NCBI GenBank assembly: GCA_017525605.1
Contig: JAFXSM010000033.1
Location: forward strand, 10,747 to 74,746
Origin: Treponema sp.
GTDB taxonomy: Bacteria; Spirochaetota; Spirochaetia; Treponematales; Treponemataceae
DNA: 64,000 nt
Reading direction: 5' to 3'
The notes beneath the pieces were generated by a model. It worked only from the letters and a program-made list of their open reading frames with translations. It was not told the DNA's origin and ran no database searches. The translations under genes were made by a program, and so were the position numbers. The number at the start of each line of letters is the position of its first letter. Positions within the stretch are counted from its first letter, which is position 1. Of the stretch, positions 147 through 48,005 are shown piece by piece.

Positions 147-348
147 CGTTTTCCATTTTAGCACGGTTTTTAAGAAAAATCGAAACGTTTTTAGGCAAAT
201 GCCGAATTTTACAATTCAGTGGTATAAACGAGCGGAAGCGAGGTTCCACCTTCAAAAACGGTTGCCGTTGCGCAATTATTTTCTAAGCATTGCGTCGTGG
301 AGGCAACCGTTCACGGCACGAGCTGTCGCTCGTACCTTTTCCTTTGCA

Positions 349-1674
349 TTAATTCGACTTTTTGTCTTTCGGCAAAATCAAATTCAATACGATTGCGAGG
401 AGGAATACTGTCGCGACGCAGTTTTCCGCGAAGACGCTCTGGAGGAGTTTCGGGAACAGCTCGAAGATTTTCGGGACCTGCGTGAAGCCGAGTCCGATTG
501 AGAGCGAGAGCGCAGAAATCGTGATGTTCCTTTCTGAGAATCCGCATTTTGAGAGCATCTTGATTCCGCTGATGACGATTGTTCCGAACATCATTATCGT
601 GCAGCCGCCGAGAACTGCCTGCGGGACAGTAGTGAGAACCGCGCCGACAATAGGGAAGATTCCCGCGATGATCATTATGACCGCGCCAGTTCCGATTGCG
701 AACCTGTTCACGACTTTTGTCATTGCCACGAGACCGATGTTCTGGCTGAACGAAGTTATCGGTGTGCAGCCGAAAACGGAAGCGAGGGAAGAGATGAATC
801 CGTCACAAGCGAGCGAGCCTGAAATCTCGCGCTCCGTGATGTCCCTGTCGAGCGCAGTCGAGCAGACCGCGCTTGAGTCTCCGATTGTTTCCGTTGCCGA
901 GACGAGGAAGATTACGCTCATTGCGACGATTGCGCTCGCGTTGAATTCAAACTTGAAAGGCATGACTGCAGGAAGTCCGATTATCTTTGACGAGGCGACC
1001 GCGCTGAAATCTACCATTCCGAGGCAGATTGAGAGAATGTAGCCTACGACAAGACCAATCAGAACTGCGATGAGCTTGAGATATCCTTTTGCGAAATAGC
1101 TGAATCCGAGGCTGACCGCGAGAGTCACCGAGCCGACAATCCAGTTGTGCGCCGCGCCGAAATCAGCAGCTCCCTGTCCGCCCGCAAACGAATTCGCGCC
1201 GACAGAGAGCAATGAGAATCCGATTGCAGTGACGACCGTTGCCGCGACGACAGGCGAAATCAGCTTTATCCAGTACTTTGCGAAAAGTCCGAGCACGCCC
1301 TCGATGAGTCCGCCGACGAGCACCGCGCCCATGATTGCTCCGTATCCGTATGTCGTTCCGATGAAAATCGAAATCGAGAGGAACGTGAAGCTGATTCCCA
1401 TTACAATCGGGAGTTTCGCGCCGACTCTCCAAAGAGGGAAGAGCTGAATGAGCGTTCCGATTCCTGCGATAATCATTGCGTTCTGGACAAGTCGCGCGCT
1501 CAAGCCCTGCTCGATTCCGCAGATGTTCGCGAGTATGATTACCGGCGTTATGTTTGCGACGAACATCGCGAGGATATGCTGAAGTCCCATCGGAACTGCT
1601 TTTCCGAGCGGAACGCGTCCGTCTGTCTTGTAGATGTTTTCTGCTGATGCGACATTTGCCGTATCTGTGTTCAT
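349..1674 (-). CDS. pbuX: NCS2-family nucleobase (xanthine/uracil) permease
   Basis: ORF 349..1713 is a polytopic membrane protein with an NCS2-like sequence. I prefer the internal ATG at 1674 (MNTDTANV...), which is 4 nt after the xpt stop and preceded by AGGAG. It lies directly downstream of xpt, as in xpt-pbuX operons. Confidence 0.85.
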   Translation of the reverse strand: MNTDTANVASAENIYKTDGRVPLGKAVPMGLQHILAMFVANITPVIILANICGIEQGLSARLVQNAMIIAGIGTLIQLFPLWRVGAKLPIVMGISFTFLSISIFIGTTYGYGAIMGAVLVGGLIEGVLGLFAKYWIKLISPVVAATVVTAIGFSLLSVGANSFAGGQGAADFGAAHNWIVGSVTLAVSLGFSYFAKGYLKLIAVLIGLVVGYILSICLGMVDFSAVASSKIIGLPAVMPFKFEFNASAIVAMSVIFLVSATETIGDSSAVCSTALDRDITEREISGSLACDGFISSLASVFGCTPITSFSQNIGLVAMTKVVNRFAIGTGAVIMIIAGIFPIVGAVLTTVPQAVLGGCTIMMFGTIVISGIKMLSKCGFSERNITISALSLSIGLGFTQVPKIFELFPKLLQSVFAENCVATVFLLAIVLNLILPKDKKSN

Positions 1675-2878: not shown

Positions 2879-2952
2879 TTCTTGCTCCTAAAAATTGTGT
2901 TCGTGCGATTTTCCGTTGCCCATGCAATGGAATTAAACTTGTATTGTAATAA

Positions 2953-3067
2953 AAATTTTGGAAACAAGCTATCGGCGAGAACCCTATATGAAAAACGGCA
3001 GTACCGCTACGCGGTGGCTGAATGTTTTTCATACAGGAACCTCGCCTACGCTTGTTTCCAAAATTGA
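2953..3067 (+). repeat. Copy 1 of a ~115-nt rod-like hairpin element (three copies in the window)
   Basis: AATTTTGGAAACAAGC...GGCGAG-AAC-CCTATATGAAAAAC-GGCAGTACCGCTACGCGGTGGCTGA-...GTTTTTCATACAGG-AAC-CTCGCC...GCTTGTTTCCAAAATT. It is near-identical to 44041-44151 and 47815-47932. It is intergenic, between the thrH start and the sigma-factor gene. Confidence 0.9.
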
Positions 3068-3402
3068 TTCGCAAAATTTGACATTCAAATTTCTATAAGT
3101 ATTGCTTAGTGGATGCAAGCGGCGCGGCACGGCTTGCGCCGTACCTTCATTTAAGGCGATTTGAAAATGAATTTTTCATTAAGTTTGCTATAAAAATTCA
3201 AAGAATTGAATTTCGTTTTTAAGAACAGTATAAGATTTTATTTATAAACATTGAAACTAGATTGAAAAGCAGGCTGTTTAATATATACTGAACCCGTTAG
3301 ATAACAAGTTTTTAAGATTTGTTGTCAGAAATAACAAACGGATGCACCCAATTTAAAAATCGTTTTGAAACTTCGGTTCTTGAAAAAATTAGGAGGCAGT
3401 CT

Positions 3403-4233
3403 ATGAATGATGAAGTTGAACTCTACAGATCTTATATAAACTCAATCCAGAAGTACGCGCTTTTGACTTCTTTGGAAGAAGAGGAGCTTTCGAAGAAAAT
3501 CGAGGCGGGGGACAAAAAGGCACTTTTCAAGCTGGTGAATTCGAATCTCCGGCTGGTCGTCTGCATCGCGAAGAAATTTTCTTCCTCGTACAAATTCTCT
3601 ACTATGGATTTGATTCAGGAAGGAAACATGGGGCTGATGGCTGCCGCGCAGAAATATCACTATTCGTTCAACACGCGGTTTTCGACGTATGCGTACACAT
3701 GGATTTTCCAGTACATGCTGAGATTCGTCCACAACAAAACTGCGATGATTGAGATTCCGCACAGGAAGGAGGAGCTTTTGAGGCAGATTTCTTCCGCTCA
3801 GGTGGTTTTCAATCAGAAATATGGAAGAAACGCGACTGCCAAAGAGCTTTCGTCTTTCCTTGAGATTGACGAAGCCGAGATTGCGGACGCTCTTTCGTGC
3901 GCATACTCGTATTCGAGCCTTGACGTTGAGTGCAACGACGAGAGCGGCGAGACTGTCGGTGAGCTCTTCCCTGACAGGAGGTTCAATCCCGAGGACATCT
4001 ACATCGAGAACGAGGCGAAGGGCGGAATCGCGGATTTGCTCAAGCTTCTTCCCGAAAAAGAGAGAATCGTTATCTTCAACCGCTACAACTTCGCGAGGCG
4101 GCAGCGAACTGCGACTTTGCGTGAGCTTGGCGAGTCGCTCGGAGTTTCGACGGAGACTGTGCGCCAGATTGAACTTCGCGCGGTGAAGCACTTGCAGAAA
4201 GTGTGCGAGAGCGACATGAGCTGCGTGCTTTAG
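3403..4233 (+). CDS. sigma-70 family RNA polymerase sigma factor (alternative, RpoD-like regions 2-4)
   Basis: ORF 3319..4233. The ATG at 3403 is preceded by AGGAGG at 3391-3396. Region 2 reads NLRLVVCIAKKF...DLIQEGNMGLMAAAQKY...FSTYAYTWIFQ and the region 4 HTH reads LRELGESLGVSTETVRQIELRAVKHL. Confidence 0.88.
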   Translation: MNDEVELYRSYINSIQKYALLTSLEEEELSKKIEAGDKKALFKLVNSNLRLVVCIAKKFSSSYKFSTMDLIQEGNMGLMAAAQKYHYSFNTRFSTYAYTWIFQYMLRFVHNKTAMIEIPHRKEELLRQISSAQVVFNQKYGRNATAKELSSFLEIDEAEIADALSCAYSYSSLDVECNDESGETVGELFPDRRFNPEDIYIENEAKGGIADLLKLLPEKERIVIFNRYNFARRQRTATLRELGESLGVSTETVRQIELRAVKHLQKVCESDMSCVL

Positions 4234-7698: not shown

Positions 7699-7816
7699 TT
7701 TTTTTCATCTCCTTGAAATTTTGGAATTTAAGTTCGATTTTATCATCTTAGCTTTCAATTGTAAAAACAGTACAAAAGATTTAGACTAGTGCAATAGTGG
7801 ATACATGAGGAAAACT

Positions 7817-8854
7817 ATGAGTAAACTTTACATTCCAGACATTTATGAAAGCGTTCTCGGTGAAAGAGAAACAGAACACGCTATTACTATGGTCAAGGAG
7901 TTCTTTCAGAACGAATTATCGACCGAACTGAATTTGACGAGAGTCACAGCACCTCTTTTTGTTCCTAGCGGAACTGGTTTGAACGACAATTTGAACGGTG
8001 TCGAAGTTCCGGTTTCTTTTAGCGTGAAGGATTTGAACGGACAGGGCATGGAAATCGTCCATTCCCTCGCAAAGTGGAAGAGAGTGAAAGTCACGAAGAT
8101 GGGACTTGCTCCTGAATTCGGAATTTATACAGATATGAACGCAATCCGCCCTGATGAGGAGCTGGACAATGTTCATTCAATCTACGTTGACCAGTGGGAC
8201 TGGGAAATGGCAATCGACGAGAAAGAAAGAACGGTCATGCACCTGAAAGATGTCGTCGAGAAAATCTACAGATGCCTTAAGAGGCTTGAATTCTTCATCT
8301 ACGACAGATGGGACAAAATCAAGCCGTTCCTTCCTGAGAAAATCACGTTCATCTTTGCCGACGACCTTCAGAGAAAATATCCTGAGCTTACGCCGAAGCA
8401 GAGGGAATACGAAGTTTGCAGAAAATACGGTGCGGTTTTCATCATCGGAATCGGCGGAAAGCTTCCTGACGGAACGATTCATGACGGACGCTCGCCTGAC
8501 TACGACGACTGGATCAGCGAGACTGGCGACGGTCACAGAGGTCTGAACGGAGATTTGCTCGTCTGGAACCCTGTTCTGCAGAATTCGTTCGAGATTTCTT
8601 CTATGGGAATCCGCGTCAATCCTGAGAGCCTTCACGCGCAGCTTGAGGAGCGCGGCTGCCTCGACAGGGAAAAGCTTCCGTTCCACAAGGATTTGCTTGC
8701 TGGAAAATACGCGCTCACGATGGGCGGCGGAATCGGTCAGAGCCGTCTTTGCATGTTCTTCTTAAGAAAAGCCCACATCGGCGAAATCCAGGTTTCAATC
8801 TGGTCGGAAGAGGACAGAGCGGAGTGCAAGAAGCACGGAATCAATCTTCTGTAG
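7817..8854 (+). CDS. asnA: aspartate--ammonia ligase (asparagine synthetase A)
   Basis: ORF 7805..8854. The ATG at 7817 follows GAGGA. Class II aaRS-like AsnA pattern (LTRVTAPLF, SIYVDQWDWE, GGGIGQSRL). Confidence 0.9.
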   Translation: MSKLYIPDIYESVLGERETEHAITMVKEFFQNELSTELNLTRVTAPLFVPSGTGLNDNLNGVEVPVSFSVKDLNGQGMEIVHSLAKWKRVKVTKMGLAPEFGIYTDMNAIRPDEELDNVHSIYVDQWDWEMAIDEKERTVMHLKDVVEKIYRCLKRLEFFIYDRWDKIKPFLPEKITFIFADDLQRKYPELTPKQREYEVCRKYGAVFIIGIGGKLPDGTIHDGRSPDYDDWISETGDGHRGLNGDLLVWNPVLQNSFEISSMGIRVNPESLHAQLEERGCLDREKLPFHKDLLAGKYALTMGGGIGQSRLCMFFLRKAHIGEIQVSIWSEEDRAECKKHGINLL

Positions 8855-8902
8855 AAAATCGGCTTTTTCGGAATTGCGGTTTCGGAAAAGCATTTTTGAT
8901 GA

Positions 8903-18023: not shown

Positions 18024-18194
18024 ACAAAAAACAGGCCGCACACGACGTGCGACCACACTTTGCAGAATCTTGTTTTCACAAAGAGGGACGTACAGGATGT
18101 ACGTCCACACTTTAGCAGAACCGCCATGCAGTTCTGCGTAGTTTTGATACGGCACGGATGCCGTATCAAAACTACTTATTCTGTTGGGCGTTTC
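18024..18194 (-). repeat. Direct repeat A: duplicated argG 3-prime end plus four-hairpin 3-prime UTR
   Basis: It aligns with 19955-20123 at roughly nine positions in ten by eye. It includes a decayed copy of the last argG codons and stop (18176-18194, minus sense) and a copy of the argG terminator hairpin. Confidence 0.9.
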
Positions 18195-25959: not shown

Positions 25960-26030
25960 TCGCTCTTAGGCATTTTCTTTAGTTCCATGCATTTTGTGGA
26001 ACGAGCGCAATGCAAGAAAAATGCAATGAA

Positions 26031-26085
26031 AAACGGGATTTTAAGAAATGTTTTTCTTGGAATCCCGTTTTTTTATGTTTTCGTC
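26031..26085 (+). terminator. intrinsic terminator after eda
   Basis: AAACGGGATT...AATCCCGTTT followed by TTTTATG. Confidence 0.7.
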
Positions 26086-30761: not shown

Positions 30762-30810
30762 AAAAAAAATCCTCCGTACACTTCAAAAAAAGTGCGGAGG
30801 ATTTTTTTTC
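30762..30810. terminator. bidirectional intrinsic terminator between the MCP gene and gltX
   Basis: AAAAAAAATCCTCCGTAC...GTGCGGAGGATTTTTTTT, with an A-run and a T-run flanking the stem. Confidence 0.8.
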
Positions 30811-44004: not shown

Positions 44005-44040
44005 ATCGTTAGGTCGAATGTCGAGTTAATATTGATTGTA

Positions 44041-44151
44041 AAAGTTGGAAACAAGCTCCCGGCGAGAACCCTATTTGAAAAACGGCAGTACCGCTACGCG
44101 GTGGCTGAAGTTTTTCAAATAGGAACCTCGCCTACGCTTGTTTCCAGTTTT
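44041..44151 (+). repeat. Copy 2 of the ~115-nt rod-like hairpin element
   Basis: Same architecture and apex as 2953-3067. It lies between convergent pgi and the 44188 gene. Confidence 0.9.
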
Positions 44152-44187
44152 GCTTCGTAAAACTCGATATTTGACTTTTTTGTTTTT

Positions 44188-46646: not shown

Positions 46647-47783
46647 ATGAAACTTACTTGTGGTATCGTCGGTTTGCCGAACGTCGGTAAATCAACAATT
46701 TTTTCTGCCCTGACAAAGGCACCTGCAGAAGCTGCGAATTATCCGTTCTGCACGATTGAGCCGAATCACGGTGTCGTCGAGCTTCCAGATGAAAGGCTCG
46801 ATTTCATGGCATCTGTTTTCCAGCCGAAAAAGAAGATTCCTGCGACTGTCGATTTCGTTGACATCGCTGGTCTCATAAAGGGCGCATCGAAGGGCGAGGG
46901 ACTCGGAAACCAGTTCCTTGCGAACATCCGCGAGACTTCCGTAATCGCGCACGTCGTCCGCTGCTTCGACAACCCTGACATCCAGCACGTCCGCGAAGAT
47001 GCCAAGACTGACGCTCCGATTGATCCTGAGAGCGACATTCTCACAATCAACTACGAGCTTTGTCAGGCCGACATCGACACGATAACGAAGCGCGAGGAGA
47101 AAATCGTGAAAGAGGTGCGCGCGCTCGGAAAGGAAGCTGAGAAAAAATATGCCGGCTACAAAAGCGCGATTGCAAAAATCATGCCGCTTCTTCAGGACGG
47201 AAAGTGCGCGAGACAGGCGGAACTCACTGACGAGGAGAAAGCTGGCATTTACGACTTGCATCTTCTCACTGTGAAACCGCAGCTTTTCGTGTGCAACATC
47301 GACGAGGACACAATTGCGGAAGGAACGAACAAATATGTCGAGACTGTGAAGAAACTTGCAGCAGAGGAAAAATCGGAAGTCATCGTCATCTGCGGAAAAT
47401 TCGAGTCCGACCTTGCGGACATCACTGACGAAAACGACAGGAAGGACTTCATGGAAAGCGTCGGCTTGAAAGAGTCAGGTCTTACAGTCCTCGCACGCGC
47501 CGCATATCACCTGATGGGACTGCGCACATTCTTCACTGGCGGTCCGGACGAGTGCCGCGCATGGACAATCCACAACGGCGACCTAGCTCCGCAGGCAGCC
47601 GGCGTAATCCACACCGACTTTGAAAAAGGCTTCATCAAGGCAGAAGTCTATTCCGTTGACGACCTCCGCGAATACGGCTCAGAGGCAGAAATCAAATCAC
47701 ACGGAAAATATAGGCAGGAAGGAAAAGAGTACGTCGTCCAGGACGGAGACTGTATCTTCTTCAAATTCAATGTGACGAAGTAA
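46647..47783 (+). CDS. ychF: redox-regulated ATPase YchF
   Basis: 378 aa. GIVGLPNVGKST and the TGS-like C-terminus. Confidence 0.95.
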   Translation: MKLTCGIVGLPNVGKSTIFSALTKAPAEAANYPFCTIEPNHGVVELPDERLDFMASVFQPKKKIPATVDFVDIAGLIKGASKGEGLGNQFLANIRETSVIAHVVRCFDNPDIQHVREDAKTDAPIDPESDILTINYELCQADIDTITKREEKIVKEVRALGKEAEKKYAGYKSAIAKIMPLLQDGKCARQAELTDEEKAGIYDLHLLTVKPQLFVCNIDEDTIAEGTNKYVETVKKLAAEEKSEVIVICGKFESDLADITDENDRKDFMESVGLKESGLTVLARAAYHLMGLRTFFTGGPDECRAWTIHNGDLAPQAAGVIHTDFEKGFIKAEVYSVDDLREYGSEAEIKSHGKYRQEGKEYVVQDGDCIFFKFNVTK

Positions 47784-47814
47784 AGCGTATAGCGAGTTCA
47801 TTGCTAATTGAAGG

Positions 47815-47932
47815 GCAAGTATACAAGCTTTCGGCGAGAACCCCACCTCCAAAACGGCAGTACCGCTTCGCGGTGGCTGAGTGTTTTGGAGGTGGGAACC
47901 TCGCCTACGCTTGTACACTTGCACTTGGTTTA
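47815..47932 (+). repeat. Copy 3 of the ~115-nt rod-like hairpin element (covarying copy)
   Basis: GCAAGTATACAAGC...GGCGAG-AAC-CCCACCTCCAAAAC-GGCAGTACCGCTTCGCGGTGGCTGA-GT-GTTTTGGAGGTGGG-AAC-CTCGCC-TAC-GCTTGTACACTTGC. Confidence 0.9.
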
Positions 47933-48005
47933 AAAAATCGATATTCAGTCTTTTTTTTGCACAAAATGAAAAATGCGAGATAAGTAGTTATTGAGGTGTT
48001 TCATT

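Follow-up and report, generated by a model that had tools for sequence, protein, structure and literature searches.

The DNA analysed here, referred to below as the window, is a stretch of 64,000 nucleotides from a Treponema sp. assembly (GCA_017525605.1, contig JAFXSM010000033.1, positions 10,747 to 74,746 of the forward strand). It contains three copies of a hairpin-forming repeat at 2953-3067, 44041-44151 and 47815-47932, which the initial annotation correctly described as intergenic and co-oriented; all three are on the plus strand. The open reading frames crossing the element are non-conserved, and no transposase gene was found next to the copies or in those parts of the window that were annotated. 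The coordinates given for the core of the element are correct as well, but the element itself is longer, with a full length of 160-167 nt, and a fourth, rearranged copy had been missed. The copies, together with two parts of copy 1 that are used below, are as follows.

194-366, minus strand: copy 4, rearranged, revealed by the profile search.

~2927-3090, plus strand: copy 1, full element, with a decayed 5' end (~2927-2942), the core rod (2953-3067) and the 3' terminal repeat (~3074-3090).

2983-2996, plus strand: 5' arm of the variable stem of copy 1, pairing with 3024-3037.

2997-3021, plus strand: apex of copy 1 (the same apex is found at 44084-44108 and 47856-47880).

44012-44175, plus strand: copy 2, full element, the best preserved (positions 1-165 of the profile model, 104 bits).

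~47783-47950, plus strand: copy 3, full element with decayed ends, starting at the ychF stop codon (47781-47783).

Copy 1 (nhmmer match 2955-3086; 114 bits with the covariance model of the core) had been proposed to sit in a 5' leader of thrH, which is not supported. The gene called thrH encodes a HAD-family hydrolase and is located on the minus strand (2273-2878, start at 2878); copy 1 therefore lies in the divergent spacer between this gene and a sigma-70 gene on the plus strand (ORF 3319-4233, called start ~3403), antisense to the former and ~310 nt upstream of the latter. Copy 2 begins 8 nt past the stop codon of pgi, and CTTTTTTGTTTTTTT comes directly after it. Its terminal inverted repeats, GGTCGAATGTCGAGTT and AACTCGATATTTGAC, pair end to end, and the full-length fold has an energy of -87.9 kcal/mol (z -11). 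Copy 3 has a variable stem (CCACCTCCAAAAC/GTTTTGGAGGTGG) that is fully compensated relative to copies 1 and 2. A T-run was said to be lacking in copies 1 and 3; this does not hold for copy 3, where T8 stands right behind the 3' end of the full-length element. The 3' arm of copy 3 (47871-47905) also contains a perfect Shine-Dalgarno-like GGAGGTG ~100 nt before the next gene. It pairs with CACCTCC of the 5' arm, copy 4 has a similar sequence (GAAGGTGG), and the motif is probably a coincidence.

In copy 4, the remnant of the 5' end, GACAAAAAGTCGAATT (366-351), provides the last five codons and the TAA stop of a xanthine/uracil permease gene. The 3' half is normal (260-194), and the 5' arm and apex are swapped for an unrelated hairpin-rich sequence (~308-260); this inner segment is unique within the data examined. 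Note that copies 4 and 1 are inverted relative to each other and enclose, in a manner resembling the arms of a composite transposon, a 2.7-kb block with genes for a xanthine/uracil permease, a phosphoribosyltransferase and a HAD hydrolase; the same bracketing is found in other strains of the species.

A scan of the whole window with a covariance model of the core, filters off, recovered just the three core copies (108-114 bits), the next match having 16 bits. The best matches outside the family (13-16 bits; 18138-18175, 26029-26072 and 30762-30809) are perfect or near-perfect inverted repeats with A/T runs, typical of ordinary intrinsic terminators and unrelated to the element.

For each copy, the core folds into one long rod with an energy between -60 and -70 kcal/mol (z between -8.4 and -11.2 compared with shuffled sequence), and the complementary strand folds about equally well. 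The parts of the rod were for the most part described correctly, i.e., the 6-bp stem GGCGAG/CTCGCC, the AAC/AAC loop, the ~14-bp stem and the ACCGC-N3-GCGGT apex, except for the outer loop, which is 4x3 and not 3x3. Relative to copies 1 and 2, copy 3 has changes in the outer stem and the 14-bp stem, all of them compensated. The 25-nt apex, GGCAGTACCGCT[A/T]CGCGGTGGCTGA, occurs exactly three times in the window, whereas no occurrence is expected (100 shuffles). It is a G+C-rich hairpin composed of CAGU/GCUG and ACCGC-N3-GCGGT with a bulged G, with AAAAC on its 5' side and GTTTT on its 3' side, and on either strand it resembles a small intrinsic terminator.

Alignment of the copies together with their flanks revealed terminal inverted repeats of ~17 nt with the consensus GGTCGAATGTCGAGTTT ... 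AAACTCGACATTCGNCC, in which 89% of the cells are paired and compensated changes occur (helix 1). From the ends inwards, the element of ~165 nt thus consists of the terminal inverted repeats, an unpaired AT-rich spacer of ~14 nt on each side, the outer stem, the 4x3 loop, the 6-bp stem, the AAC/AAC loop, the variable stem and the apex, and it has no coding capacity. The spacers are wholly different between subfamilies. About a quarter of the copies have GTATTCG in place of the T-run beside the apex, and in further variants a mini-hairpin is added behind the apex. Variants of the outer stem and of the variable stem are found in mixed combinations, which points to exchange between copies. Furthermore, the MAG bin.26 has a long form of ~250 nt, in which an extra folded domain of 76 nt is present in the 3' arm, forming a three- or four-way junction. 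The possibility that this domain is an independent repeat was rejected, as it is confined to the long forms and occurs nowhere alone.

A scan of one genome per GTDB species for the apex motif gave at least 97 matching stretches; among the matches listed, all belong to rumen Treponema/Spirochaetaceae MAGs, except for a few chance matches in high-G+C genes. Many of them are located ~45-70 nt from contig ends, as expected of a repeat that breaks assemblies. In the DNA of the loci selected by this motif and in the window, the nhmmer profile detected 115 non-overlapping copies, with at least 57 in the MAG RGIG9161 and at least 33 in bin.26. The window shares ~85% nucleotide identity with RGIG9161 over a conserved gene (window 7755-8866 vs L075:2008-3117), and proteins identical to those of the window are encoded in the assemblies GCA_024697755.1 and GCA_017534515.1 and in several rumen/gut metagenomes. 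The window thus represents a distinct, repeatedly sampled rumen Treponema species.

Perfect 5-bp AT-rich direct repeats (e.g., TATTA, AGATA, TTCTA, TAAAA) are present just outside the ends of 11 of 24 full copies, compared with 1.3 expected from permuted flanks. The copies of the window species have decayed ends and no clear duplications and are older than those with clear duplications; the direct evidence of transposition comes mainly from related genomes and from strain polymorphism. In the orthologous loci L058 and L073 of two MAGs, the copies are offset by 3 bp, possess different duplications (AAATA and TAATA, respectively) and carry different variable stems. If the element and one copy of the duplication are removed, both loci give the same sequence, GATAAATAATAACGAG, and the insertions are therefore independent. 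In both genomes, the new copy was inserted adjoining an older truncated copy (L073:673-938, L058:5301-5523); insertion may favour existing copies or the AT-rich DNA at their borders.

All sites of the window are polymorphic among assemblies encoding proteins identical to those of the window. The 3' site of ychF carries the window allele, one of two different family members in other strains (with the first G of one of them converting the stop codon to TAG), or no element at all (L103). At the 3' end of pgi, the element is absent from L109, where a conventional two-way terminator-like hairpin, AAAACCTGCTCGGAAATTGAATTTTCTGGGCAGGTTTTATTTTT (L109:2790-2850, corresponding to window 44005-44180), is found. 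The window does not contain this hairpin; element and native terminator thus represent alternative alleles. The 3' site of the permease gene possesses, depending on the strain, a normal copy, a copy with extra mini-hairpins or the rearranged form of the window. In the spacer between the thrH-called and sigma-70 genes, two assemblies (L116, L119) have a different interior between the same end remnants. A segment of ~106 nt to the right of copy 1 (3091-3196), which holds a terminator-like G+C-rich hairpin (GCGGCGCGGCACGGCTTGCGCCGT, 3119-3142), is absent from these two assemblies as well. L014 and L016 share flanks and terminal repeats, with the whole interior inverted between them (L014:2450-2900, L016:830-1290); a tRNA gene (GCCCTTGTAGCTCAGCTGGTAGAGCGC...) lies ~130 nt from this element. 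In another copy (L029:2324-2510), the 3' terminal repeat is duplicated in tandem. Both the in-place inversion and the match between the arms are consistent with recombination or template switching from one arm to the other, and in-place inversion has been reported for Correia elements as well (PMC10969869).

The small size, the absence of coding capacity, the inverted ends, the 5-bp duplications and the many dispersed, polymorphic copies are the properties of a MITE, and the element is very probably such a non-autonomous DNA transposon of rumen Treponema. A 5-bp duplication is made by several transposon families, and the ends of the element do not single out one of them. A search of ~0.7 Mb of Treponema loci and of the window yielded neither a cognate transposase nor a full-length parent sharing the ends; as these loci had been selected by the apex motif, a parent without the apex would escape this search. 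Orphan terminal repeats, looked for in all loci, turned out to belong only to internally deleted or duplicated elements, and the loci have no long repeats in common beyond orthologous regions. Short contigs bounded by the element encode ordinary genes, and the neighbours of the truncated copies are ordinary genes, too.

The initial annotation recognised no named RNA family, and indeed Rfam gave no match in the window at the gathering threshold. At E-value thresholds, only chance miRNA-type hairpins (E ~0.1) and a weak M-box (E = 0.3) appeared, and the long form matched nothing in Rfam. The plasmid and phage collections contained no match; the single IMG/VR match was a chance one, inside a high-G+C phage gene. 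In the literature, we found no description of a Treponema repeat of this kind. The family thus has no clear match to a described one and appears to be undescribed; the kind of element is well known, and its folded core appears unusually well kept. Bacterial MITEs form hairpins, invert in place, carry terminator-like centres and occupy gene 3' ends (PMC10969869), and Spirochaetes including Treponema are reported to be rich in MITEs (PMC11602168).

The consensus fold was built on 52 distinct full copies and comprises 49-50 pairs. Standard pairs make up 95.3% of the sequence-by-pair cells (80.7% in shuffled data), double-sided changes are seen in 32 of 49 pairs, and the covariation score is 0.397, compared with 0.129 for shuffles and at most 0.09 for slid partners. 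The structure is thus conserved across genomes, as shown by strong covariation. Strict Watson-Crick pairs account for 93% of the stem cells, and G-U pairs (32) are not commoner than A-C mismatches (49; two invariant apex positions left out). In tandem gene contexts, 10 copies are co-oriented and 18 anti-oriented (two-sided binomial ~0.19), and of the 51 classified copies 14 are located between convergent and 9 between divergent genes, the rest being tandem. The pattern of a strand-specific RNA, that is, an excess of G-U over A-C and a consistent orientation, was therefore not found, and the pairing is kept at the duplex level or on both strands.

Covariation of this strength would also be in line with a structured non-coding RNA (sRNA gene, or cis-acting leader or 3'-UTR element), whose repeats would be gene copies and whose apex and loops would be bound by protein or processed by RNase III. 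The invariant or nearly invariant apex and loops, the survival of the core where the ends of the element have decayed, and the folded domain gained by the long form at a three- or four-way junction all agree with such an RNA. Nevertheless, we consider it quite unlikely. Its orientation to flanking transcription is random, so that half of the copies would give the complementary RNA, and G-U pairs are not favoured. No conserved promoter was seen, the spacers differ completely between subfamilies, Rfam contains no match, and the inverted ends, the duplications and the presence/absence polymorphism are marks of mobile DNA. On these grounds, the discrete ~110-nt RNA or 5' leader envisaged by the initial annotation is not supported.

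Conservation is distributed unevenly over the element. In RGIG9161, which harbours a recently amplified subfamily, diversity peaks in ~8 variable base pairs (pi 0.4-0.6), which are always compensated, and there is hardly any variation in the spacers. In bin.26, diversity is high in the ends and spacers (pi 0.4-0.8) and close to absent in the core; the terminal repeats at the two ends of any one copy nevertheless match. In copies 1 and 3 of the window, the ends match the consensus at ~10 of 16 positions, and the 25-nt apex is untouched. The chance that 25 apex positions stay unchanged at the rate of end divergence is ~1e-5, although this divergence may partly reflect a subfamily-specific consensus. 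The idea that the variable stem is copied from flanking target DNA was rejected (longest shared word 6.57 nt vs 6.51 nt in permuted pairs). Plain transposon decay leaves unexplained the intact apex and loops, arms that co-change even within the terminal repeats, and a variable stem in the recently amplified subfamily that is far more diverse than the spacers. Since the core survives in copies with decayed ends, it may be maintained by something other than transposition.

One candidate for this, compatible with a MITE origin, is takeover by the host, with the elements used as bidirectional terminators or as hairpins stabilising 3' ends; we regard it as a possible but tentative explanation. Insertions are concentrated at the ends of genes: behind a co-oriented gene, the element begins 0-13 nt past the stop codon and sometimes supplies the stop codon itself, the TA|GG junction being able to create TAG. 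Furthermore, the centre of the element, in which the apex stands between an A-tract and a T-tract, has a terminator-like score on both strands, and additional T-runs are present behind the full elements of copies 2 and 3. In the element-free strain, AAAACCTGCTC...GGGCAGGTTTTATTTTT is found at the same place near pgi, and pairing restricted to Watson-Crick pairs fits a hairpin required on both strands. However, a stable hairpin suffices for termination, which requires neither a fixed 25-nt sequence nor the AAC/AAC and 4x3 loops; a gap of 3-4 nt lies between the apex stem and its T-run, the copies with GTATTCG beside the apex have no T-run there, those between divergent genes (copy 1 among them) stand where no terminator is needed, and the association with stop codons may reflect merely a preference for AT-rich targets. 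It is conceivable, though unlikely, that the core is a functional module in itself, carried by the transposon, selected after the ends die and read by a dedicated Treponema protein. The fixed apex and the AAC/AAC and 4x3 loops may then be a platform that is recognised in the form of a DNA cruciform, single-stranded DNA or RNA; arm-to-arm correction, in-place flipping, copy-to-copy exchange or a programmed 3'-end signal are possible roles, and the compensated, diverse 8-bp segment could be an identity tag.

Two other types of mobile structure have to be considered. A recombinase-driven module, i.e., an invertible switch or a site of cassette exchange with the ends or the ACCGC-N3-GCGGT apex as recombinase sites, would account for the inverted interior of L014 and L016 between unchanged ends, for the different interiors between the same end remnants at the thrH-sigma site and for the mixed combinations of outer and variable stems, and the apex does contain a 5-3-5 palindrome. 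It is very unlikely all the same, since general recombination or template switching inverts the interior of any inverted repeat of at least 17 nt, as happens in Correia elements (PMC10969869), no copy is associated with a recombinase gene, and the duplications and dispersed copies would be left unexplained. The signature of integron attC sites, complementary AAC/GTT boxes, is absent; attC was rejected as AAC is unpaired and present on both arms, and the copies are situated 3.7-41 kb apart among housekeeping genes. A REP/REPIN-type repeat, in which paired inverted palindromic units are moved as single-stranded hairpins by a RAYT (Y1/HUH) transposase, is similar in its long imperfect hairpin of two inverted halves, its intergenic location, its many copies and its co-evolving arms, and the fact that a DDE transposase was not found is consistent with it. 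To our knowledge, however, a target-site duplication is missing in REPINs, which depend on a RAYT gene, and staggered-cut duplications are not produced by REP/RAYT and IS200/IS605-type mobility, whereas the variable 5-bp direct repeats outside the ends of the Treponema element indicate staggered-cut insertion. As a short repeated REP unit and a conserved GTAG-type 5' motif are absent as well, and a RAYT gene was found in none of the loci (a small sample of each genome), we consider this origin very unlikely.

For a MITE, mobility would depend on a transposase encoded elsewhere in the genomes, which would act in trans by binding the terminal repeats and would cut AT-rich DNA with a 5-bp stagger, in many cases at a stop codon or beside it. 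With less confidence, we suggest that the arms might remain complementary because one arm is corrected against the other, or recombines with it, in the DNA, or because a hairpin is selected for on both strands, and that inserted copies may be retained because the hairpin serves as a 3'-end or terminator structure of the transcript in either orientation. Such a two-way use is plausible and would explain the Watson-Crick-only pairing on both strands, but it leaves the fixed apex sequence and the loops unexplained.

The closest analogues of the element are Correia/NEMIS, ERIC and the pneumococcal RUP, SPRITE and BOX repeats. Correia elements (CREE/NEMIS) of Neisseria are also non-coding MITEs (~100-200 nt) with terminal inverted repeats, more than 100 intergenic copies and short and long variants, and we know of no cognate transposase for them. 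They belong to another host phylum, have no sequence similarity to the Treponema element and duplicate TA instead of 5 bp. Furthermore, they possess promoters and an IHF site, whereas no promoter-like sites were detected inside the Treponema elements, in which conservation extends to the 25-nt apex and the internal loops, and covariation to all stems. ERIC/IRU of enterobacteria and Yersinia are imperfect palindromes of ~127 nt that also exist in longer forms, created by insertions at fixed positions within them; cases of compensated changes in the stems are known from ERIC, which duplicates TA. Here again sequence similarity is absent, and the effect of ERIC on RNA depends on its orientation. 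SPRITE, RUP and BOX of Streptococcus pneumoniae are small repeats of intergenic regions that occur in clusters and insert beside or within each other, and nested or adjacent copies are found for the Treponema element, too. The architecture of these repeats is different, with a modular build in BOX and a link to an IS630-family element in RUP, and their sequences are not similar to that of the Treponema element. Tn3-family-derived MITEs (TIMEs) are mentioned only as an example of a 5-bp duplication of AT-rich targets combined with ends that begin with G. Tn3-family elements make 5-bp duplications in AT-rich targets and have ends of ~38 nt with a GGGG start and a TAAG end; in contrast, the Treponema element has a ~17-nt repeat with a GG start and no GGGG/TAAG-type motif, and no Tn3-type transposase was seen. 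The closest analogues all form hairpins, resemble MITEs, occupy gene boundaries, exist in long and short forms and affect transcripts: transcripts of Correia elements, whose presence is strain-dependent and whose in-place inversion has been reported, fold into a long hairpin; ERIC/IRU are found in either orientation, often at gene 3' ends, and their hairpin affects mRNA fate; and SPRITE has a structure similar to a rho-independent terminator (PMC10969869).

For the genomics of rumen Treponema, the element has consequences: it breaks MAG assemblies, many contigs of which end within it, and it creates strain differences exactly at gene ends, where stop codons can be supplied, C-terminal codons replaced and native terminators substituted. 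Insertions of this kind bear on annotation and on 3'-end regulation in an uncultured and abundant rumen group. As a hairpin that is carried by a transposon and stays paired on both strands despite sequence drift, the element also calls for caution, because covariation alone is not proof of a functional RNA. If its core were bound by a specific protein, the family would be a tractable model of MITE domestication.
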